A stretch of DNA of 64,000 bases from Trypanosoma brucei (lineage: Eukaryota): positions 3,072,001 to 3,136,000 of the forward strand of contig CM000208.1 of assembly GCA_000002445.1 (NCBI GenBank), given 5' to 3'. The notes beneath the pieces were generated by a model that ran no database searches, was not told the DNA's origin, and worked only from the letters and a program-made list of their open reading frames with translations. Below, piece by piece: positions 28,764-44,771 of this stretch. Positions within the stretch are counted from its first letter, which is position 1. Each line of letters starts with the position of its first letter. Both the position numbers and the translations under genes were made by a program.

Positions 28764-31700
28764 ATGAAAGCACCAGCCTTGCTGTTGTTTTTACTGTCAG
28801 CATGTGCCGCATCGCCGCCGACGAGGGAAGCCGGGGGTGTACAAGTAACCGTGACAATTGTGTCTCTGATGTACAGTAAAAACTGGCCTGCTGAGTACAT
28901 CAACGCTGTCAATGCTGGTTTTAACGCATCCCTGGCCGCGCGGAACTGGGTGGTAGCGCCTGGGGTTAATGTTTCGGTAGTTCCACCCCCGTCGTACGAC
29001 ACCCCAGCATATCAGCACCTGGAGAAGTACTTAGAAAATGTAAAGGACGATAACAGCAGTATGGTGGTTGTGTTGGGTCCCATGGGCGAAGAGAGCAGCT
29101 TTGCCTCGTATGATACCCTGAAGAAACACGGTCTTGTCGGATTCGCTCCTATGACTGGGGCTGCGGGTTTTGAGACTTACCTTCCACACCTCTATTTTCT
29201 TCGCCCTGGTTTTACGGGTGAACTCATAGCCCTTATCCGTTATGCCGTGACTTACCTGCGCGTTCTCCGGTTGGGGTTTACCTACCTTGAAGGTATGATG
29301 GGGGGTACTACCACATACGAGAATGCTGTGGACTTTTTGTCACGCATGGGATACACGTTTTGTTGTATTTTCACAGTGCACGGGACAGCCGAAAGGCGGA
29401 CGGTAACAGGTAGGGAGTTCGATGTGGCATGGAACGAGTTTGCCGGGAAACTTCCACAGGCTGTTATTGTTGTTGCTACTGTAAATGATGAAATAAAGAA
29501 TTTTGTCAAGAACCTTGTGGCTGATCCACGCACCGCGGATGCGTACCTGTTGGCTCCCTCACTAATGCAGAAGTCGATCGTGACAGTATGGAAGGAGGCA
29601 TTGGAAGCTGCAAATGCCACTTTTGTCCCTCGTCGCGTAATCCAGACAGGCACCAACCCACTTGCCAACGACACAGACAGTCGTGCCATTAGTCGCTTTC
29701 AAGGTGAGATGCGGGATTATCTTACGGCATATGGGGAATGGGCCGGTGTCGACGACGCAGAGTGCTTCCTCAAGGACGACGCAGAGGGAGAACTGATGGT
29801 TGCTGGTTGGCTCGCTGGAGAGGTGCTATCGCAAGCTCTACGGAGCCATGGATGGATGAACAATCGCACAGCTTTCATGGAGTCGCTCTACGAGCAACGC
29901 CGTTACGTCGTTGACAACATCGTTATTGGTGACTTTGGAGGTAGTTGTGAGGACAATTCTACTGATAGCGGTGCCATCTGCCAGTGCAACCGCGGCGGTA
30001 GGAAGGTATACATGAAGGAGATTGCAGAGGGCTACCGACTAAGACCGCTTGTTGGCGGCTACATCGTACAGTCCCAACTGGAGTGTAATAGTGATCCTGC
30101 AATCCTGCAGCCGCCGCTCAGCGGACTCGCCATCCTCATAAATGATCGCCAGGAGCTTACGAGGGCTGTGAAACAGTTTAAAATTGGCACGTCTGCCGTA
30201 TCTGCAGATGGCGAAGACGATGACGTGGACAGGCTTGTCATTCAGGTATTTGACACAAAGGCGCATACCGCTTTCGACGATCTCAAGGCGCTGCAACAGA
30301 GGAAAATTTTAACTGCTTTGTTCGGTGTCGTAACTGAGTCGTTGTTAGAACTCTCAAACGTGACATTCATTGACCCAATGGTGCCAACGCCTCATTTAAA
30401 CACTTTCAACAGGAATGTGATCCGCCTGTCGCCAACATTGGAGCAGCAGCTTTATGTACATGCGACCTACCTGTCTAGCATCCGTGCTGTTAATGTCCAC
30501 TGTATTGTCAGAAGCAACGAAGCGGCTCGCATCATCGACGTGCTTAGGAAGACGTTGATTACCTTTGGTCTGAATCTCAGTTCCACAAAAGTATTGGAGG
30601 CCAGGACCACGATTAGGGGGAATCTACCGACAAGGGGCAGTGTATTTCTCATTGGGCTCGTCGGCACTGACATTGCGGCAATTGAAGAACACCTCCGCAC
30701 ACACGAGAGGACTCTTATATTTGTCCAGTATTCTGACATCGCGTTGCTATACAATGAGTTTGTGCAAACATTTAACAACACTCATACTGCCGAACGTCTT
30801 GTGTTCGCAACAAGTTTACCGCACTGGGCAGACGCCAACACGACATCGGAGACTGTGCGACGGTTCCAGGACGTTATATCTGATGTGGCGCTACGGACAC
30901 CGCTGTCACTGTTGGGTTTTGCCACTGGCAGGTTGATGCAGAGGAACTTGCAGCGTATGCCCAAGGTGACCCCTGAACTCCTGTCCGACCTCTTCTTCGA
31001 AGAAACAGTGATCACTGTCGACGACATGCGCTATGGACCATTCAGGCACTACGATTGCGTAATCAACGATGTCGTTACCGAGGATAATTGTATAACAAAT
31101 TTTGGTGCGGCGGACATCAGTGTGTGGTCGATGGCGCGTGCGCTACGACCACATGAGCCAGTACTGCAGGAAGCGATGTTTCCGTCGATGAAGTATAACG
31201 TTCCTAATGGTAACGCCCTCACCCCCGCACAACTTGCTGGCGTAATCGGTGGGACCTCGGCAGCCCTGTTCCTCCTTTTGGGGCTTGGCGTGCTATTGTA
31301 CTTCGTCCTTCGCGATGGTCGCGACAACGACAACGCGCCCAAGGAACCAACAGACCCGGTGACGCTCATCTTCACCGATGTCGAGAGTAGCACTGCGCTG
31401 TGGGCTGCTCACCCCGAACTGATGCCGGAGGCCGTCGCAGCTCACCACAGCATGATCCGCTCGCTGATTTCCCGTCACGGATGCTACGAGGTGAAGACGG
31501 TTGGGGATTCGTTCATGATAGCCTGCAAGAGCCCAACAACCGCAGTCAAGCTTGTGCTCGACTTACAGGTGATGTTCATGCAGTACGACTGGGGCTCTTC
31601 TGTGTTCGACGATTCGTACCGCGAGTTTGAGTTGCGTAAGGCGGATGATGTCGACGGTTACGCCCCACCAACCGCGCTCCTTGACAGCGCAACGTACGGG

Positions 31701-32393
31701 CAGTACTGGAACGGGCTGCGAGTGCGAGTTGGTGTGCACACCGGGTTGTGTGATATTAGACATGATGAAGTGACGAAGGGTTACGATTATTACGGGCAGG
31801 TTCCCAACCTTGCTGCGCGGACGGAAAATGTGACGAACGGCGGGCAGGTGCTGCTAACGCACGCGATGTACCTTGCACTCAGCACCGCAGAACGTGAGGA
31901 ATTTGACGTGACCCCATTGGGTGAAGTACCGTTGCGTGGTGTGCCGGAGCCTGTTGTAATGTACCAGCTGAACGCCGTTCCCGGCCGCTCTTTTTCTGCA
32001 CTTCGTTTGGACCGAGTTATTGACGTGCTGGAGGAAGGCGGGGACGGCACAGGCACTTCTGGTAGCGACCGCGCGTCAACAGTCATCGAGCTGAGTGAAT
32101 CTGCGCAAGCGATTGCTTCTTCCCTGCTGTCTCTACTGGGGACCCTGACACCCGCACAACGCCACAGGACGCTTATGCTCTTCTGTGAACGCTGGCGCGT
32201 CGCACTTCCTCGTAGCTTGGGCGCCGTATGGGACGATGACGGCTGTCGTGAGGTTATACGGCGCGTCGCCGCAAAGGTTGGTCACGTTGTAGATTTTCAT
32301 TCACTGGGAACGAGTGAGCGCTCGTCAAGCACGTTGTCAAGCGCATCGGTAATTATTATCCCCAATCGGACCACGGATTTTGATAAGTTTTAA
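28764..32393 (+). CDS. GRESAG4: Receptor-type adenylate cyclase (GRESAG4 family), 1209 aa
   Basis: A signal peptide (MKAPALLLFLLSACAASPP) leads into a large extracellular domain. A single TM segment follows (GVIGGTSAALFLLLGLGVLLYFVL). The class III cyclase catalytic domain is present (TLIFTDVESSTALWAAHPELMPEAVAAHHSMIRSLISRHGCYEVKTVGDSFMIACKS … VRVGVHTGLCD…YYGQVPNLAARTEN). Confidence 0.9.
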   Translation: MKAPALLLFLLSACAASPPTREAGGVQVTVTIVSLMYSKNWPAEYINAVNAGFNASLAARNWVVAPGVNVSVVPPPSYDTPAYQHLEKYLENVKDDNSSMVVVLGPMGEESSFASYDTLKKHGLVGFAPMTGAAGFETYLPHLYFLRPGFTGELIALIRYAVTYLRVLRLGFTYLEGMMGGTTTYENAVDFLSRMGYTFCCIFTVHGTAERRTVTGREFDVAWNEFAGKLPQAVIVVATVNDEIKNFVKNLVADPRTADAYLLAPSLMQKSIVTVWKEALEAANATFVPRRVIQTGTNPLANDTDSRAISRFQGEMRDYLTAYGEWAGVDDAECFLKDDAEGELMVAGWLAGEVLSQALRSHGWMNNRTAFMESLYEQRRYVVDNIVIGDFGGSCEDNSTDSGAICQCNRGGRKVYMKEIAEGYRLRPLVGGYIVQSQLECNSDPAILQPPLSGLAILINDRQELTRAVKQFKIGTSAVSADGEDDDVDRLVIQVFDTKAHTAFDDLKALQQRKILTALFGVVTESLLELSNVTFIDPMVPTPHLNTFNRNVIRLSPTLEQQLYVHATYLSSIRAVNVHCIVRSNEAARIIDVLRKTLITFGLNLSSTKVLEARTTIRGNLPTRGSVFLIGLVGTDIAAIEEHLRTHERTLIFVQYSDIALLYNEFVQTFNNTHTAERLVFATSLPHWADANTTSETVRRFQDVISDVALRTPLSLLGFATGRLMQRNLQRMPKVTPELLSDLFFEETVITVDDMRYGPFRHYDCVINDVVTEDNCITNFGAADISVWSMARALRPHEPVLQEAMFPSMKYNVPNGNALTPAQLAGVIGGTSAALFLLLGLGVLLYFVLRDGRDNDNAPKEPTDPVTLIFTDVESSTALWAAHPELMPEAVAAHHSMIRSLISRHGCYEVKTVGDSFMIACKSPTTAVKLVLDLQVMFMQYDWGSSVFDDSYREFELRKADDVDGYAPPTALLDSATYGQYWNGLRVRVGVHTGLCDIRHDEVTKGYDYYGQVPNLAARTENVTNGGQVLLTHAMYLALSTAEREEFDVTPLGEVPLRGVPEPVVMYQLNAVPGRSFSALRLDRVIDVLEEGGDGTGTSGSDRASTVIELSESAQAIASSLLSLLGTLTPAQRHRTLMLFCERWRVALPRSLGAVWDDDGCREVIRRVAAKVGHVVDFHSLGTSERSSSTLSSASVIIIPNRTTDFDKF

Positions 32394-36004: not shown

Positions 36005-36379
36005 CAACCATAGCTTTTAAAGGAGTAGGTGTAAACGATACATCAACAGAATTTTTGTTTTGCTTGGGAAGTGCCACTTTAGGGGATGGGGAACAATTTA
36101 TGGTCGATGATGAGGCTTCCCGGGCATTTTGGAAAAGAAGGATGGAATTGCTCAGGGTCTGGTGGTTAAAGTTTTGCAACGGGAGTGTGCCGAGCCCCTT
36201 CCCACAACTTTTTCCTCACTCGAGTGAGTGGCCCGACTTTTACGTGTCGTCTCCCGGTTGTTTCGGTGGCGATGCTTCTGAATGTTTTCAGTCTAATGAA
36301 CAGGAAGAAGGAGCCGTGCCCCTCAGTAGGAAAGGTGGCGTACGGTGGATCATTTCGCACAGCATTGGAGGGCTTCGGA

Positions 36380-36401
36380 TGTGTGTGTGTGTGTGTGTGT
36401 G
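36380..36401. repeat. (TG)11 microsatellite, reverse complement of the (CA)22 lying 376 nt upstream
   Basis: Direct read. Confidence 0.95.
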
Positions 36402-37670
36402 AAATCCTTCCCATACTGCAGGGATAAAAAAGGGTTTCCCGGATTCTATCCTCTTGTCTGTGTTTCCCGATGTCGCGGCAGACCCCTTTTAGGCTGCTAC
36501 CGTGGATTTTACATGCAGTAGGGCTTTGCTGAGAGAAGGTGCGCGGGTAGGTCAAAAGAAAAAGACAAAAAACGTAGGGAAAAGTGATCATTTCGCCAGC
36601 GTCTGAAAAGAAAATCCCCACTTTACCAATTTTTCTAACGGCGAGGGGCTTCACCACGAATAATTTTATAAGCGCAAGTTCGTGCGTCGCCGGTGTCAGG
36701 GGAAGTGGGCTTCATCAGGGCAAACGGCAGTGACACCAACATTCGCTCGCTCCTGTACAAAAAGAAAATGAATAAGGTGCAAAAGGTAATAAATCAAAAG
36801 AAAAAAAAGGAAAAGGGCGAAAAGGAAAAAAAACGAAACGTCTTAACTAAGTTGGTGTACAAGACACGAAAATTTATATCGTCCCTTCAATAAGGAGCGG
36901 ACTTCATGTTGAACGCCCAGGCACACACAATCTCCCCGTCAGTTGTGGTGGGAAGCGACTAGAGAGGACGCGGTGTGCCAAACTTTCTCGTCACCACTGG
37001 ACCCCGTAGTGCTGTAACTGTGTTTTCGTGTGTGCAGAGGGGAGGATCATATTCTGCCGCGTCGGTACGACACATGGCGCCGCATTTTGTTAGTGTCAGA
37101 AGGACACGCCCTTCGTGGCAGTAGCCGCGGATGGCGGACGGTTTTCTTTTTTCTCCCCCCCCCCTGCACATCTCTACCCCTCATGCGCAAACCTTTCCAT
37201 CGTTAATTTGCCGTCATGGTACAACATTCCCCCAATCGTTCCGGGCGGTCGTTCTAATACACAACGTAGTCCCAATCCTAACCCTTTTCCGGTTCCAACA
37301 TTTTGATGCAATATTTTTTTCCGCATGGAGTAATGACCCTTTCCTCGCAGCACCATGCATTTCCGTTACACAGTTCCCATGTTTCCACGCAGTCGCAGTG
37401 TGTGCGACCACCGCTTCTGAGTTCTCTGTTTAACAAACAATATAATGCACATGCCCACCGAGTAAAACACCCCGCAACCAGCCAAAAGGGGGAAAAAAAG
37501 ACGTCCGCTACTCGATTCCCGCTTCTTCACCGCACTCACCTTTACGAGCGCAGCATGGTACGGAGCGTACACGGCACTCACCATCCTCGATGGCGTTTGC
37601 GGCGTCTCTGGAGCTGGCTCCGGTTGCAATAACCCTTTTTTTTCCCCTGTCACCCACGTTCTTCGCTATG

Positions 37671-40600
37671 TTAGCTGTGAAACCAGCGGACGAGGTATTC
37701 GGGATAACTTCGCGTACCGGGTGACGGCACCGACAATTCCCACTGACCTGCCGCGGGCCCGCTGCCTCTCACCATCGCGCATCGCTGCACAACAAAGAGG
37801 CCGGTGTCAGGCCCCGCTGACGGTACGCAACATGTTTCCATTTCGTCCTCATCACTCACCACAGCCCCCAGTGCGACGCGGAACACGATTGCCCACGTGG
37901 CCCACGGGTTGTCATCGTTGCGTGTTTGTTTTTTGGCCTCCATCCACGGCGGAACAAATGCAAACCGGCATTTTTCTTCTTTAGTCCCCTCGAGACATAT
38001 TTGCCATGCCTCCTCCTCGTCCTTGCAGTTGTACCACAAGAATCGTTCGTTGACCTCACAATCGTCGCTGCACGGTAAGAAGTGAGGTTGCTCTCTCAAC
38101 GCCACCGGCACTGAAAAAGAACTACACCCGCGCGCCAGCACCAGTTGCTGGCGATATTTCCAATATGTTTCCCACAAGTAAATGTTACGGTTGAGAAACA
38201 CCGCGGTGCCCTGAGGTGATCGGTGCATGAGAACGCGGTTGTCTGGAAACAACGAGACAGGCCCCATGTTTTTTTGCGCTGTCCAATACGGCGGGTAGGA
38301 AACCTCCTTGGTAAAGAGGTATTGACGTTCGTCACAATCATAGTTTACTTTGATAAGGCGCCGTACGAAGCCTCTTGCATCCAGCAGACTCCAACGAGGC
38401 TCCAGTTTACCCGTCAAACGGTCAGCGACTTCCAGAAACACATTAAACATTTCCCTTATCTGTTGCTCGGCCTGGCCGCATCCAGTCACCACACCTGAAG
38501 AGGCCCTGTCGTCACTAGCGTTGCGATGGGGAGAAGATTTGGTCTGCGGCAGGGTGCCACGAAGGTATGGGAGTACTTCAGCGTGTAGAGTCACTCCAAA
38601 GTCAGCAGCGTCATCCTGAGCGGTTTTCGTCCCGTATTTGTGCACCTTCAGGGAGTTTGAAAAAAATCCGAGCGTCGTATTTCCAAAGTCATCATGTGTG
38701 AAGTTGGACATGCAGATATCGCCATGGGTTACCTGGCACGAGTGAATGTCAATAATAGCCTGCAAGGCGCCGTGGAGCCATCGAACCCCGTGTTGTTTGA
38801 TTCTTTTTAAGATGTCCTGGGGTGAGCTAAATCGCACTTGTGTTCCGCCCCGGGGTAGATGAAAATATATTTGATTTGTGTGCTCATCACCGAATACTTC
38901 AATTGCAGAGGTCACGCGACAGGACGCGCACGTCTCCTGAAGTCGCAGCTCACGTTCCATGAGGGTTTTGAATACCTTGGTTGTTTGTACCGAAGACTCA
39001 TTTTCATATTTTGGGAATGTATACCGCTTGAGCCAGCATGGTGTAACGGTGCCGCTGATGGGATCCACATACTCAGCGCACAACAGGGCAAACTCGATTT
39101 CGCTGATCTCTTTTCCATCTTTTAACACCATCCCCTGATAGGTTGCAGGTTTGTGGGGTTCCAATACATTTCGGGGCTCAACCACAACGTGCTTGTAACT
39201 CACTAAGGTACGTTCACGCTCGTATTTTACATAGCGCCGAATTTCACATTTTTGGTGCGCGCAACGGGCGCAGGAGGAAGGCAGCAATTTGAAGAACCCA
39301 ATATTTTCTGGCAGGTGCACACTGTAGATATTGTATAACTCGCACGTGGCGGCGTCTACCTCCGTAAACACTTGGTGAAAAAGCAAACTTTCCTTTGTGT
39401 CCCCTTCACGTTGTTCGCTCGACTTCAATTTTTCCTTCTTAGCGGTAGATTTGGAGGTTCGCCCCCCTACGTCATGCGTTGCGTGCCGCAGTGACGCAAC
39501 ACTCTTCATTTTGCTGTCCCGCGCTCTGTAATATTCCTTGCACGTTTCCCGTAGTCGCTGGTGCGTATCAACAGCGTGTGCTCCCGAAAGCGCAAACCCC
39601 GCAATAAGCCCGATGATTCTCACCTCATCCGCGAATTCCAGCGTCCTCTCATCTTCTGTTTCATCAGATTCTTCCAACGAATCGCTGTCGCCGGTGCAGA
39701 GTGCTTGTATCGCGGTCTGTATGTCAAACAGCGCACTGAGTGTCTGTCCCGTCCCCGCCACCACTGTTACATCAGCAGTGGCACCGGTGTGCTGCTTGAA
39801 AAAGCTGTGGGCGAGGCTTTGCGCGGTTTTCCACAACTCAAATGCCTCGATCAACTTGCCGGTCACGTGCTTTGGAAAGCAAGTTGCGACAATTGTCCTC
39901 CTTAGATCCTCACGCTTTGCCACCGCCTCACATTTTGTGCACCACCGGAAATCACAGCAGGAACGCTCGACGGGTAAAACGGTCGTTGCGGTATCCCTCG
40001 CAGCGACTTCATCCGCGATGTGAACAAATACATGCATTCTGATGAACATGTGCACGTTGACCTTGAGCCGCGACCATCCCTCACAATCCCTGTGCAGCTG
40101 TTTCAACCACGAAAACGGAACTGCCTCGGTTGTGAGTTGGTAACAACGCTGAATAGCGGCTAGTACTACACAGATGCTGTGCTGCGTCGTCGAAGCTTTC
40201 GTTTCCGAAACTGCGTATTCCTCATCAGCGACACTTTCATCCGGCTCGTCCACGCTAAGTTCCTCCAGTTCGCTCAACTCCAGTGGGGTCCCCGCTTCTA
40301 ACGCCAAGAGTCCACTGTCACACAGCTCTTGGGCTTCTTGTGAAGAGTTCTTTCCAGTACGAAACAGCGATTGCAGAAAGCTCACAACGGCATTCTTCTT
40401 TCGTTTTCGGGGGCGCCGCGCACCATCTGTGTGGATTGCTTCCTCATTTTCTTGACACAAACGCCGGCAATCCTCATGCCAGCCCTGGCAGAAGGCGTAG
40501 ACCTCAAAGTCATGGTTCAGCACACCCGTCAACTCACCGCTCCCGCCTCTGTCGGGGTGGTGCACGAGCAAAAGTGCTCTGTAAACCTTTCTGCACTCAT

Positions 40601-41426
40601 TGCGTTCGTTTACAAAACCCCACTTCCGCTGCAGCTGAACTATCGCAAAATGCTGGAAGGATATAGGCATCAACGCAATATTAGCCGAGGCACGGTACTC
40701 GCTAATATCCGTGAGACCCTCCCACCCGCATGCCACTCGGTAATCTCTGTAGTGTTGGACGATACGGCATGTCTCAAAGGAGAGCAGGCAATGCTGTGGT
40801 TCGAGTAGTTCCTCGAAGCGCCTCCGGGCCCCCTGTTCGTTACGGGGGTACCCGTACTGTCTCCTAAGCTTAATTTTAAGAATTAGACGATCAACATGCC
40901 GAGTGAGTAGCGTTACAACGCAGAAGTTTAAAGCAACAGAAAGCACTGTAGTTGCAATAACTTGCCCAACCACTGGAATGGAACCCAACCCGATCAGCGA
41001 TCCAATGGCGTATCCAATCGCCAAGCCAGTGGCTGCGGTTCCAACCTCCTTGCCAATGCGCAACGCCAAATCCGTACGATCCATTGGCAATCCCAATACG
41101 TTAAGCGCCCCACGCCGGTAGTCGCTGACAGCGCGGAATGACTCGTATGCAGCGACCGCTGCCGCCGCTATCGGGTTGGCCACAGTTGCCGAAAAGACAA
41201 GGTTGGTTGTGATGCTCACACCCGTGCGAGCAGCACCATCAACAATATCTCCCCTCTTCAAAGCAAGAACCGACTCGTGGGAGTTTGTTGGGGAAACGGT
41301 GTGATCCGATGCATTCTGAGGTGTAAGCGACAGTTGAATGTTTTCCTGCGTCGGGTCCTCCTCTCGTCGTTTTGATTCATCATCATCAACAATAATAAAC
41401 TCACTGGCATCTTCCTTATCCGTCAT
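37671..41426 (-). CDS. Large hypothetical membrane protein with a J-domain-like HPD motif and a C-terminal protein-kinase-like (probably pseudokinase) region, 1251 aa
   Basis: A hydrophobic N-terminal block at about aa 120-175 (GTAATGLAIGYAIGSLIGLGSIPVVGQVIATTVLSVALNFCVVTLL) predicts 2 TM segments. A J-like segment follows (…ECRKVYRALLLVHHPDRGGSGELTGVLNHDFEVYA). Near the C-terminus, AIIDIHSCQVTHGDICMSNFTHDDFGNTTLGFFSNSLKV resembles kinase subdomains VIb-VII, but the DFG Asp is absent. The ATG is at 41424-41426. Confidence 0.65.
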   Translation of the reverse strand: MTDKEDASEFIIVDDDESKRREEDPTQENIQLSLTPQNASDHTVSPTNSHESVLALKRGDIVDGAARTGVSITTNLVFSATVANPIAAAAVAAYESFRAVSDYRRGALNVLGLPMDRTDLALRIGKEVGTAATGLAIGYAIGSLIGLGSIPVVGQVIATTVLSVALNFCVVTLLTRHVDRLILKIKLRRQYGYPRNEQGARRRFEELLEPQHCLLSFETCRIVQHYRDYRVACGWEGLTDISEYRASANIALMPISFQHFAIVQLQRKWGFVNERNECRKVYRALLLVHHPDRGGSGELTGVLNHDFEVYAFCQGWHEDCRRLCQENEEAIHTDGARRPRKRKKNAVVSFLQSLFRTGKNSSQEAQELCDSGLLALEAGTPLELSELEELSVDEPDESVADEEYAVSETKASTTQHSICVVLAAIQRCYQLTTEAVPFSWLKQLHRDCEGWSRLKVNVHMFIRMHVFVHIADEVAARDTATTVLPVERSCCDFRWCTKCEAVAKREDLRRTIVATCFPKHVTGKLIEAFELWKTAQSLAHSFFKQHTGATADVTVVAGTGQTLSALFDIQTAIQALCTGDSDSLEESDETEDERTLEFADEVRIIGLIAGFALSGAHAVDTHQRLRETCKEYYRARDSKMKSVASLRHATHDVGGRTSKSTAKKEKLKSSEQREGDTKESLLFHQVFTEVDAATCELYNIYSVHLPENIGFFKLLPSSCARCAHQKCEIRRYVKYERERTLVSYKHVVVEPRNVLEPHKPATYQGMVLKDGKEISEIEFALLCAEYVDPISGTVTPCWLKRYTFPKYENESSVQTTKVFKTLMERELRLQETCASCRVTSAIEVFGDEHTNQIYFHLPRGGTQVRFSSPQDILKRIKQHGVRWLHGALQAIIDIHSCQVTHGDICMSNFTHDDFGNTTLGFFSNSLKVHKYGTKTAQDDAADFGVTLHAEVLPYLRGTLPQTKSSPHRNASDDRASSGVVTGCGQAEQQIREMFNVFLEVADRLTGKLEPRWSLLDARGFVRRLIKVNYDCDERQYLFTKEVSYPPYWTAQKNMGPVSLFPDNRVLMHRSPQGTAVFLNRNIYLWETYWKYRQQLVLARGCSSFSVPVALREQPHFLPCSDDCEVNERFLWYNCKDEEEAWQICLEGTKEEKCRFAFVPPWMEAKKQTRNDDNPWATWAIVFRVALGAVVSDEDEMETCCVPSAGPDTGLFVVQRCAMVRGSGPAAGQWELSVPSPGTRSYPEYLVRWFHS

Positions 41427-43007: not shown

Positions 43008-44771
43008 TTACGCCTTCTTTGCCTTTCTGTTTTTGTAACACTGACAGCAAAGCGCAACGGATATGGCACCTACAAAGATAAGCAGAAGAAATGTCGCAAG
43101 GAGGAAGCGAAACAACACTTGAAGCAAAGTGCAGTCCGGCCAAACCTGCCCCTGAACCGACTGCATCACGTATGTAACAAAGGGCGTGGGGTAGGTTGGG
43201 GGATAGTGTCGGTCGGGAATGCCAGCACCACGTTCGTCACGTTCTTGGCGAAACATGGTTTCACATTCTTGTTGTTTAGCTAATGTGGCATCCTCAATCC
43301 ACCCATACTCGTTTGCCTTTGCTTTGTATAGTTGACAACCCGACTTATGTGTAAGGGCACTAAGCGGCAGCGTTAGGTGCAGGGCCACTGCTCCATTTTC
43401 AGGAATGCTGTGAATTAGAATGGAAGCGTTCACATCCCTCTCGAATTGCTCTCGACGTTCCTCGTGCGCGCTTGTCTCTGACAACTCAAACCGAGCCTTT
43501 GAATTCGCTGTTAACTTCAACACACCGAAGTTACGCTCAACATAAACCCCAACCCGTCGTCTGCTCGGAAACAGAGACGTGAGGATTGTTGGCAGCGCAA
43601 CGAAACTAGCCGTGCTATGCGTGAGCCCAGAACTTGTGGCCTCTATAATGGGATATCCAAGTGTCCTCATGGCGGCTTTTCGGGTGTCCATCCCGATTTC
43701 ACCCAAGTGGACGTCACCACTCATAAAGATTACCCGATCAGTCCGGAACTGCCGCAGTAGTGCAAAGAGTCGGTCACGGGATCGGGGGAAGGCAGCCCAG
43801 CTTTCCGACACCTTCTCGTCTAACATAATTTGCACACCATTTGCTACCACCGTAAGAGCACAACGCTCACGACCGGTCGCTGGGTTACGCCCCGCCACGT
43901 CGTCCCTAAGTCGCTCTTCCAACCACTGCCACTGTGTTTCACCTAACATATTTCCACTCCGAGTAGCGTTGGATGGATCTCTGAAGTATCGCGCGTCCAG
44001 TAGCAGAAAACAAAAAGCGTTATCATAAAAATGTTTCATTACATTTACCGCAGCGGTTGCTGCGGTGTCACTGCCAGCCGTAGAACTTAACAATTCAACT
44101 GGAACGGCCTCAAAGTGGTAAACTCCTTGCCGCTTTCTCCTTGGATCAGTGCGAGGCACTCCCAGAAAGTCTAAATAGAACTGCTGCATCGCGTCCTTGT
44201 CGGAGAATTCTGCTCCCCCGTCATTCTTTCCCATGTCATGATCATCCCATACGCCGATGACGCGATGCTCCTCCCCTTCCCCTTCCCCTTCCACACGTTT
44301 GCCAACCTCTTCACTAGAAGATGGAATGTTAGTACGTTTTCGCTTAGCAACGCAAGTGTGGCGGAAAGCAACGTATTGCGGGGCGTTAGCTTGATGGACA
44401 AACTTGGCCTGTGCAGCCTTTAAGTCAAGTGGCGGTGGAGTTTTCCGGAGTATCACAGTTCTGTCCGCGTACACGGCGTCACCAGTCCATATCAGTGCAT
44501 CTACCGGGCGCCGCGAAATGCATTGTCCCATTTGTTTGGCTACGGAGCCGTTGAGGCGTTGCTCAACCGTAGTGGCGATGACGTCCCAGTAGTTTTGATC
44601 ACCGTCGTGTCGGTTACAACTGAGAAACACAGCCTGCCCCATGGTGTGGTTTATCCCATACACCTCAGCACCAATGCTTCTCCGCACCGTCGATTGAAGT
44701 GCCAACAGAATGAAGGCGATCAAAACCATTAAAACAACCGGTGCCGTTCTGTAAACGCCTCGCCTTAACAT
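43008..44771 (-). CDS. PhoD-like / calcineurin-like metallophosphoesterase, membrane-anchored, 587 aa
   Basis: The N-terminal signal/TM is VVLMVLIAFILLALQS. VIGVWDDHDMGKNDGG fits the WDDHD/E motif of PhoD-like phosphatases. IFMSGDVHLGEI is a GDxH metallophosphatase motif. A C-terminal TM (LLATFLLLIFVGAISVAL) is present. Confidence 0.7.
   Translation of the reverse strand: MLRRGVYRTAPVVLMVLIAFILLALQSTVRRSIGAEVYGINHTMGQAVFLSCNRHDGDQNYWDVIATTVEQRLNGSVAKQMGQCISRRPVDALIWTGDAVYADRTVILRKTPPPLDLKAAQAKFVHQANAPQYVAFRHTCVAKRKRTNIPSSSEEVGKRVEGEGEGEEHRVIGVWDDHDMGKNDGGAEFSDKDAMQQFYLDFLGVPRTDPRRKRQGVYHFEAVPVELLSSTAGSDTAATAAVNVMKHFYDNAFCFLLLDARYFRDPSNATRSGNMLGETQWQWLEERLRDDVAGRNPATGRERCALTVVANGVQIMLDEKVSESWAAFPRSRDRLFALLRQFRTDRVIFMSGDVHLGEIGMDTRKAAMRTLGYPIIEATSSGLTHSTASFVALPTILTSLFPSRRRVGVYVERNFGVLKLTANSKARFELSETSAHEERREQFERDVNASILIHSIPENGAVALHLTLPLSALTHKSGCQLYKAKANEYGWIEDATLAKQQECETMFRQERDERGAGIPDRHYPPTYPTPFVTYVMQSVQGQVWPDCTLLQVLFRFLLATFLLLIFVGAISVALCCQCYKNRKAKKA

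Follow-up and report, generated by a model that had tools for sequence, protein, structure and literature searches.

The window analysed here, 64,000 nucleotides of Trypanosoma brucei (contig CM000208.1, positions 3,072,001 to 3,136,000), contains on its minus strand the open reading frame (ORF) that is the subject of this report. This ORF (37671-41426 in window coordinates) begins with an ATG and translates in the ORF listing into 1251 amino acids. It forms a complete coding sequence including the stop codon (37671..41426, minus strand, as are all parts of the gene given below), with a calculated mass of 141.2 kDa and an isoelectric point of 6.2. The translation is 100% identical to the T. 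b. brucei TREU927 entry XP_827793.1 / EAN78681.1 / UniProt Q388T9, which carries the database name 'hypothetical protein, conserved'. From the N- to the C-terminus the protein consists of an acidic disordered N-terminus, a hydrophobic hairpin, a helical segment, a J domain, a linker, a helical stalk of ~300 residues and, in tandem, the folds of a kinase and of a PARP, and we have high confidence in these domain assignments. The strings on which the initial annotation of this gene had relied were all located in the translation, YRALLLVHHPDRGG at residues 282-295, DIHSCQVTHGDICMSNF at residues 893-909 and GFFSNSLKV at residues 920-928.

Of the 26 matches obtained from 5.8 billion searched proteins, 25 are full-length orthologues (28-56% identity) belonging to other species or strains. 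The named orthologues belong to Trypanosoma (congolense, conorhini, theileri, rangeli, cruzi) and to Leishmaniinae/Strigomonadinae, and several more divergent ones share 28-37% identity with the T. brucei protein. One sequence was taken per species, and the resulting alignment of 26 sequences (A1) has 145 invariant columns. The 25 full-length orthologues together with these invariant columns exclude a chance ORF; the gene is real, conserved and single-copy. The full architecture was found only in kinetoplastid or kinetoplastid-like sequences. Some of the orthologues are named 'J domain-containing protein', 'DnaJ domain containing protein', 'Protein kinase domain-containing protein' or 'Transferase'. 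Automatic pipelines have therefore already flagged two of the modules, and a curated description was not among the names. The PARP part was overlooked both by the initial annotation and by the family annotations in the sources searched. New in this analysis are the assignment of the PARP domain and the evolutionary link that follows from it. Pfam scans with the single sequence and with the whole family gave sub-threshold matches to Pkinase and DnaJ and none to PARP, so that Pfam alone is insufficient to classify the protein.

The PARP-type domain comprises the C-terminal residues 1045-1251 (37674..38294). In the AlphaFold2 model the ~210 residues that follow the kinase C-lobe constitute a separate α/β domain with the fold of a PARP-type ADP-ribosyltransferase (ART). 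Its motifs resemble those of mono-ADP-ribosylating PARPs, namely N-x-x-LW-x-x-Y, EVNERFLW-x-x-C (more generally NE[RF]LW-x-x-C), RVALG and a terminal YPEY[LIV]. As a template we used the PARP14 catalytic domain (100% identical to PDB 4py4_A) with 118 database relatives, nearly all of them members of PF00644. If the C-terminal region of the family was compared by hhalign with a profile of 50 PF00644 sequences, a probability (Prob) of 94.3 was obtained (P=1e-7, score 54.3), and at relaxed stringency the alignment was collinear across the entire ART domain. None of the controls scored above 16.2; they were 30 alignments with shuffled columns, the alignment in reverse and, from the same family, the regions of the J domain and the kinase. 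Against a template of only two sequences, PARP14/15, the match was weak (P=4e-4 to 1e-2, Prob 4-14%); significance was reached only with the 50-sequence profile. Pfam did not report PF00644 at E<=1 in any of the orthologues (0/26), and the gathering score was not reached.

The NAD+-binding and catalytic triad of PARPs, H-Y-E or H-Y-I/L, is degenerate in this domain. At the position of the triad His (1132) we counted Cys ten times, Ala five times, Tyr and His four times each, Phe twice and Arg once, and the residue that follows is never Gly. The G-x-G-x-YFA strand, which bears the Tyr in the PARP family, has no conserved counterpart in the aligned members of the trypanosome family. The catalytic position (1231) is occupied by Ile (14 sequences), Val (8) or Leu (4); PARP14/15 keep H-Y-L in the multiple alignment. 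We considered E1243 of the YPEY motif as catalytic Glu and rejected it, as the alignment puts the catalytic position at L1231 and YPEY in the conserved last strand. The conserved residues W1085, Y1088, R1092, E1124, V1125, E1127, W1131, C1134, W1141, G1147, R1183, G1187 and E1243 are of a structural kind. Judged by its sequence, we conclude that the C-terminal domain is a pseudo-PARP, with a status like that of the inactive PARP-like domain of ZAP/PARP13.

The domain that precedes it, residues 740-1035 (38322..39209), adopts the bilobal fold of a protein kinase. The initial annotation had described a kinase-like C-terminus in which the catalytic Asp of the DFG motif is missing. Its alignment, the kinase fold and the loss of the Asp were correct, but the domain is not C-terminal, because the ~210 additional residues form a domain of their own. 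The best structural match of the kinase region is a solved pseudokinase (6cpy_A), and the nearest kinases in the fold search are TKL-like and not NAK-like. The β3 Lys (K800) and the αC Glu (E826) are present in 26 out of 26 sequences. The equivalent of HRD reads H901-G902-x with Asp at position 903 in only three sequences, the Asn of the catalytic loop (908) is retained in 11, and the DFG position (920), which reads GFF in T. brucei, holds Gly in 23 sequences, Ala in three and Asp in none. A Gly-rich loop is absent; in the model a disordered insertion (residues 760-772) stands at its position between β1 and β2. Pfam Pkinase (PF00069) was matched with 15.8 bits, below the gathering cutoff of 31.7. 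The motif D912-x-F914-G915 is invariant among the 26 orthologues. Reading D912-D913-F914-G915 as a displaced DFG was rejected, as the model has these residues in the turn from β7 to β8 ('D-x-x-G') and it is GFF that stands at the DFG position. The domain is thus a predicted pseudokinase by every canonical criterion but the Lys-Glu pair. Taking both folds together, residues required for phosphotransfer and for ADP-ribosylation with NAD+ are missing from most or all orthologues.

To look for relatives of both domains a HMMER profile of residues 735-1251 (A4) was run against 1.84 billion representative proteins. It recovered the orthologues, now including T. vivax, and two out of three additional full-length relatives, all three of which proved on reading to share the transmembrane (TM) and HPD architecture. 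The tail of this search consisted of weak, library-significant matches (E 1.6e-6 to 8.7e-4). Eight out of ten scanned tail matches align via the C-terminal domain, and all eight have PF00644 exactly there, seven of them above the gathering score (53-82 bits) and one, P0305, below it (22 bits). The remaining two, which align at the kinase region, are ordinary kinases. In P0304 (465 amino acids, from a JGI metagenome), in P0305 (1039 amino acids) and in its cluster mate P0318 (1287 amino acids, from an ENA metagenome) a Pkinase domain is followed by a PARP domain. In hhalign P0304 aligned with the trypanosome family over both domains in 389 columns (E=7e-12), and P0305 did so in 348 columns (E=3e-13). 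As the tandem aligns across both domains, we regard the kinase–PARP pair as one inherited two-domain module.

The metagenomic fusions (P0304; P0305/P0317/P0318) share with the trypanosome family the domain order and the 'HG' signature in place of HRD, and in P0318 a long helical region precedes the kinase as well. They differ in that the H-Y-E triad of the PARP domain is kept (LWHGT or LFHGT; G-x-YF; a Glu before the last strand). P0305 further differs in retaining HGD, the Asn and DFA in its kinase. In P0304 the kinase is degenerate (HGG, NFE), whereas the PARP domain is intact. Decay is therefore graded within the wider family. In P0318 an HPD motif was not seen by eye, and Pfam assigns only the kinase and PARP families. 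Its gene (L001 1575-5438) is intronless and lies on a contig of 8 kb (ENA ERZ19398298) beside a second kinase gene. We know of no description of this kinase+PARP fusion family. In an ancestor the tandem was probably an active pair of signalling enzymes, and the trypanosome family would have retained it for binding and not for catalysis.

The J domain occupies residues 255-331 (40434..40664) and was identified by hhalign, HMMER and the AlphaFold2 model, where the predicted local distance difference test score (pLDDT) is ~76-82. Four helices are modelled around the HPD motif: helix I (255-269), helix II (275-289), helix III (297-314) and helix IV (321-331). The HPD tripeptide itself (residues 290-292; 40551..40559) lies in the loop that connects helix II with helix III. 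The J-domain-like HPD motif noted in the initial annotation holds up well: H289, H290, P291, D292 and G295 are each found in 26 out of 26 sequences, and Arg or Lys is retained at positions 279, 283 and 293 in 25-26 of them. For the comparison with known J domains a TIM14/DNAJC19 profile was built from 106 database sequences, with human DNAJC19 as query (100% identical to a TIM14 entry over 97% of the query). Residues 186-340 of A1 matched this profile in hhalign with Prob 95.8 (P=8.3e-9, score 54.1) over a span from helix II through HPD to helix III. The controls scored at most 23.9 for 40 column shuffles and 11-14 for the kinase and C-terminal regions. The J core of TIM14 was also the sole match of phmmer and hmmsearch against the PDB sequences; yeast TIM14 was found with E=1 from the single sequence and with E=0.0017 (2guz_A) from the family HMMER profile.

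On its N-terminal side the J domain is preceded by a predicted membrane anchor. Residues 1-75 (41202..41426) are acidic (MTDKEDASEFIIVDDDESKRREEDP…), poorly conserved (conservation 0.34 for residues 1-60) and modelled as disordered (pLDDT <50 for residues 55-81). An N-terminus of this kind, acidic and not conserved, would be unlike a mitochondrial presequence or a signal peptide. It is followed by a conserved pre-membrane segment (residues 76-131; 41034..41201; conservation 0.70) with one weakly hydrophobic helix (76-94; Kyte-Doolittle 1.59). Residues 132-178 (40893..41033) then form a hydrophobic block of 47 residues with two adjacent, strongly hydrophobic stretches (Kyte-Doolittle 19-mer peak 2.27), which AlphaFold2 (residues 55-720) models as two helices (117-144 and 152-191) joined through a tight turn. 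This agrees with the two TM helices previously predicted near the N-terminus. Invariant in the hairpin are a glycine zipper (G134, G138, G142), the turn residues P151, G154 and Q155, and S163. The turn is uncharged, the C-terminal flank has a charge of +10/−3 and the N-terminal flank of +5/−4. According to the positive-inside rule these flank charges would place both ends of the hairpin, and hence all downstream residues, in the cytosol. Between hairpin and J domain lies a helical segment (residues 179-254; 40665..40892; modelled helices 197-208, 217-233 and 240-247) for which a matching known family or structure was not found. With a conservation of 0.78, compared to 0.75 for the J domain, it belongs to the most conserved parts of the protein, and Y193, F204, L214, V223, Q224, Y226, Y229, R230, G234, W235, E236, D240 and Y244 are invariant.

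The J domain and the kinase fold are separated by a linker and a stalk. The linker (residues 332-406; 40209..40433) is modelled with low confidence (pLDDT <50) and contains short conserved motifs, the invariant F355 and, near it, LLxLE (373-377; ~40296-40310), in which L374 and L376 occur in 25 out of 26 sequences and E377 in 21. LLxLE matches the clathrin-box pattern L-Φ-x-Φ-[DE], for which we estimate a chance expectation of ~1 per protein. Residues 407-714 (39285..40208) form a long all-helical stalk or bundle with several blocks of pLDDT 85-96, and a significant structural neighbour was not found by Foldseek in the PDB (best E=0.2). The 'Cys-rich middle' described in the initial annotation was not confirmed, as residues 340-700 contain 3.3% Cys compared to 3.2% in the whole protein and only one Cys (C629) is invariant.

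The gene is part of a minus-strand array. The next gene upstream codes for a PhoD-like metallophosphatase (43008-44771, minus strand; Pfam E=3.8e-11), followed by a 438-residue ORF without assignment, a mitochondrial carrier, a UDP-sugar pyrophosphorylase and a PIG-V mannosyltransferase. Downstream, there is a convergent strand switch and then a lone plus-strand gene for a receptor-type adenylate cyclase (28764-32393; Pfam Peripla_BP_A-cyclase and Guanylate_cyc). This is the sole large plus-strand gene in the window, which is otherwise read from the minus strand, and it is located between a divergent and a convergent strand switch with flanks of 23.9-28.7 kb and 32.4-37.6 kb. The GC skew changes its sign over the range of 24-36 kb, and the gene has the look of a transcription unit of its own. 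A spurious ORF at 36166-36657 translates into …HTHTHTHP…, which suggests a short (AC/GT)n microsatellite at ~36.3-36.5 kb in the convergent strand-switch region. No tRNA genes were found in the surroundings of the gene. As trypanosome genes are transcribed in polycistronic units, this context is uninformative with regard to function.

In the literature, full-text searches with Tb927.10.13050-13100 and the prefix Tb927.10.130 gave no mention of this gene. The text of the TrypTag supplements has only Tb927.10.13100 in this range, a TOEFAZ protein at the tip of the extending flagellum attachment zone (FAZ). Tb927.10.13100 may be the PhoD-like ORF or a close neighbour. A structure-based re-annotation paper from 2025 mentions neither PARP nor pseudokinase, and its supplements are without a relevant entry. 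Two named proteins were considered and rejected. TbJ31 is a different gene, Tb927.7.990 (PMC10432679). The agreement of the calculated 141.2 kDa with the name of the clathrin-associated protein TbCAP141 is a coincidence, because the uncharacterised candidates in the paper on that protein are genes of chromosome 8.

Taken together, we favor the reading that the gene codes for a membrane-anchored type III J-protein which recruits cytosolic Hsp70 and carries a pseudokinase–pseudoPARP scaffold for partner binding, and we consider it probable. The initial annotation had proposed a kinetoplastid-specific, membrane-anchored Hsp70 co-chaperone with a pseudokinase module. The invariant HPD, the predicted hairpin, the dead kinase site and the kinetoplastid(-like) distribution agree with that proposal, which missed the second dead domain, the PARP. 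Mechanistically, the hairpin would be inserted in the membrane with both ends in the cytosol, and a hairpin anchor of this topology would keep the J domain near the cytosolic membrane face, within ~80 residues of it. The HPD loop could then stimulate ATP hydrolysis by cytosolic Hsp70, which might thereby be loaded onto cargo held by the distal part of the protein. Specificity may come from the stalk together with the dead pair of kinase and PARP, acting as a scaffold that binds clients or partners and possibly senses a ligand. Type III J-proteins generally confer specificity on the Hsp70/J-protein cycle in such a manner.

Several points weigh against this reading. Pfam DnaJ (PF00226) stays below threshold in all orthologues, with five out of 26 at E<=1 and a best E of 0.035, and the T. 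brucei protein itself has no match to it at E<=10. While four helices are modelled around HPD, Foldseek with the 666-residue N-terminal model returned only generic long-helix proteins from the PDB (E>=0.2) and no J-domain structure. The models were built on the alignment of 26 sequences and have a mean pLDDT of 76.7 and, for residues 55-720, of 69.9. Membrane insertion and topology are predicted solely by hydropathy and, for the orientation, by the positive-inside rule. K800 and E826, both invariant, appear compatible with nucleotide binding or atypical catalysis and leave room for it. Full-text searches with plausible IDs and domain terms found no paper, experiment or localisation for this gene, and the L. 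infantum orthologue appears to be missing from a curated set of 72 J-proteins of that species, as none of them has its length (1454 amino acids). Estimated from the neighbouring genes, the gene ID presumably falls within Tb927.10.13050-Tb927.10.13090.

The first part of these objections could be taken to mean that the block around HPD, as a mere J-like relic, has ceased to work with Hsp70 and that the protein is a membrane scaffold outside chaperone cycles. The sub-threshold Pfam matches, the Foldseek result and the apparent absence of the L. infantum orthologue from the curated HSP40 list would fit, as would the divergence of helix IV and the flanks. We regard this as doubtful, since degenerate J-like proteins typically lose the HPD (e.g. 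TbJ31, PMC10432679), whereas here it is kept 26 out of 26 times down to 28% identity, the basic face of helix II is conserved and few parts of the protein are as well conserved as the J region. A second possibility concerns the other end of the protein. The kinase-like domain might be active though atypical, as a kinase, as a SelO-like nucleotide-dependent transferase or, like CASK, independently of Mg, using K800, E826, H901 and D912, which would make the protein a membrane signalling enzyme with a J domain. Besides the Lys-Glu pair, H895, H901, G902, D912, F914 and G915 are invariant, and the related P0305/P0318 retain HGD, Asn and DFA. The catalytic base Asp in only 3/26 sequences, the metal-binding Asp in 0/26, the missing Gly-rich loop, the solved pseudokinase as best structural match and the low Pkinase score make activity unlikely, and D912-x-F914-G915, in its modelled β7-β8 turn, would be distant from the active-site cleft.

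Two readings that borrow from known J-proteins are far less probable. Since TIM14/DNAJC19, the sole J-domain type compared, gave a match for the J core, and since the J domain follows a membrane segment as in Pam18, the protein could be a Pam18/TIM14-type import-motor subunit of the mitochondrial inner membrane with a matrix-facing J domain; in trypanosomes the J-proteins of this motor (PAM) are remodelled (PMC7064343, PMC11349236). With an acidic N-terminus unlike a presequence, and with ~900-1000 residues including folded kinase and PARP domains after the J domain, we give this reading hardly any weight. An auxilin/GAK-like cofactor for clathrin uncoating, the analogy drawn in the initial annotation, would account for the co-occurrence of J domain and kinase fold, and the conserved LLxLE in the disordered linker fits a clathrin box. 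The analogy turned out to be superficial. The domain order is reversed, the dead kinase is TKL-like and not NAK-like, a PARP fold and a membrane anchor are present, a PTEN-like domain was not detected by Pfam and fold searches, and for a pattern such as LLxLE we estimate that one chance match per protein is to be expected. In the paper on the T. brucei clathrin interactome, the text passages found by term search, which do not include its tables, mention no gene of this region of chromosome 10. We consider such a function very improbable.

Returning to the membrane-anchored J-protein with its pseudoenzyme scaffold, a more speculative extension can be formulated, which we think improbable as it stands. 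The tandem might be the relic of an undescribed eukaryotic phosphorylation–ADP-ribosylation module, of which P0304 and P0305 would be catalytically intact forms from uncharacterised protists or viruses. The kinetoplastids might have turned this module into a ligand switch, in which the K800/E826 pocket and the PARP cleft would bind ATP, NAD+ or ADP-ribose without turnover and gate the membrane J domain. If true, this switch would tie the recruitment of Hsp70 at an organelle surface to the nucleotide/NAD+ state of the cell.

J-domain proteins determine where and on what Hsp70 acts. The J-protein repertoire of trypanosomatids is among the largest known (~70) and mostly uncharacterised, and some of its members are parasite-specific and of interest as drug targets. 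For the architecture reported here, a membrane hairpin and an intact J domain with two consecutive dead enzymes, we found no earlier description. It adds a trypanosome PARP-fold protein that is invisible to Pfam-based screens, gives a clear example of a whole two-enzyme module retained as a pseudoenzyme scaffold, and exposes a seemingly unstudied family of kinase+PARP fusions in environmental data. The architecture should be surprising for specialists in pseudoenzymes, PARPs and J-proteins alike, and it is readily testable in T. brucei.

Among the known systems the J part is closest to TIM14/Pam18/DNAJC19, with which it shares a membrane segment followed by the J domain and, over helix II, HPD(K/R)GGS and helix III, the best sequence match found. 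These proteins of ~110-170 amino acids reside in the mitochondrial inner membrane, consist of the J domain alone and, in the case of Pam18/TIM14, have Pam16/Tim44 as partners. The T. brucei protein, in contrast, has 1251 residues, a two-helix hairpin, an N-terminus that does not resemble a presequence and ~900 residues after the J domain. GAK is soluble and has an active NAK-family kinase at its N-terminus, then PTEN-like and clathrin-binding regions and a C-terminal J domain. Compared to GAK/auxilin (DNAJC26/DNAJC6), the J domain of the T. brucei protein stands before the kinase, the kinase is dead, a PARP fold follows it and the whole is anchored to the membrane by the predicted hairpin. With regard to TKL kinases and pseudokinases (RIPK1/2, IRAK4, maize GRMZM2G135359), the identity is 10-13%, a long insertion is found at the Gly-rich loop and the three catalytic Asp/Asn positions are degenerate. 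From the mono-ART PARPs (PARP10/14/15, PARP7/11/12) and from ZAP/PARP13 the T. brucei family differs in that the triad His is found in only four out of 26 sequences, the Gly of the H-G pair never occurs and a kinase fold precedes the domain in the same polypeptide.

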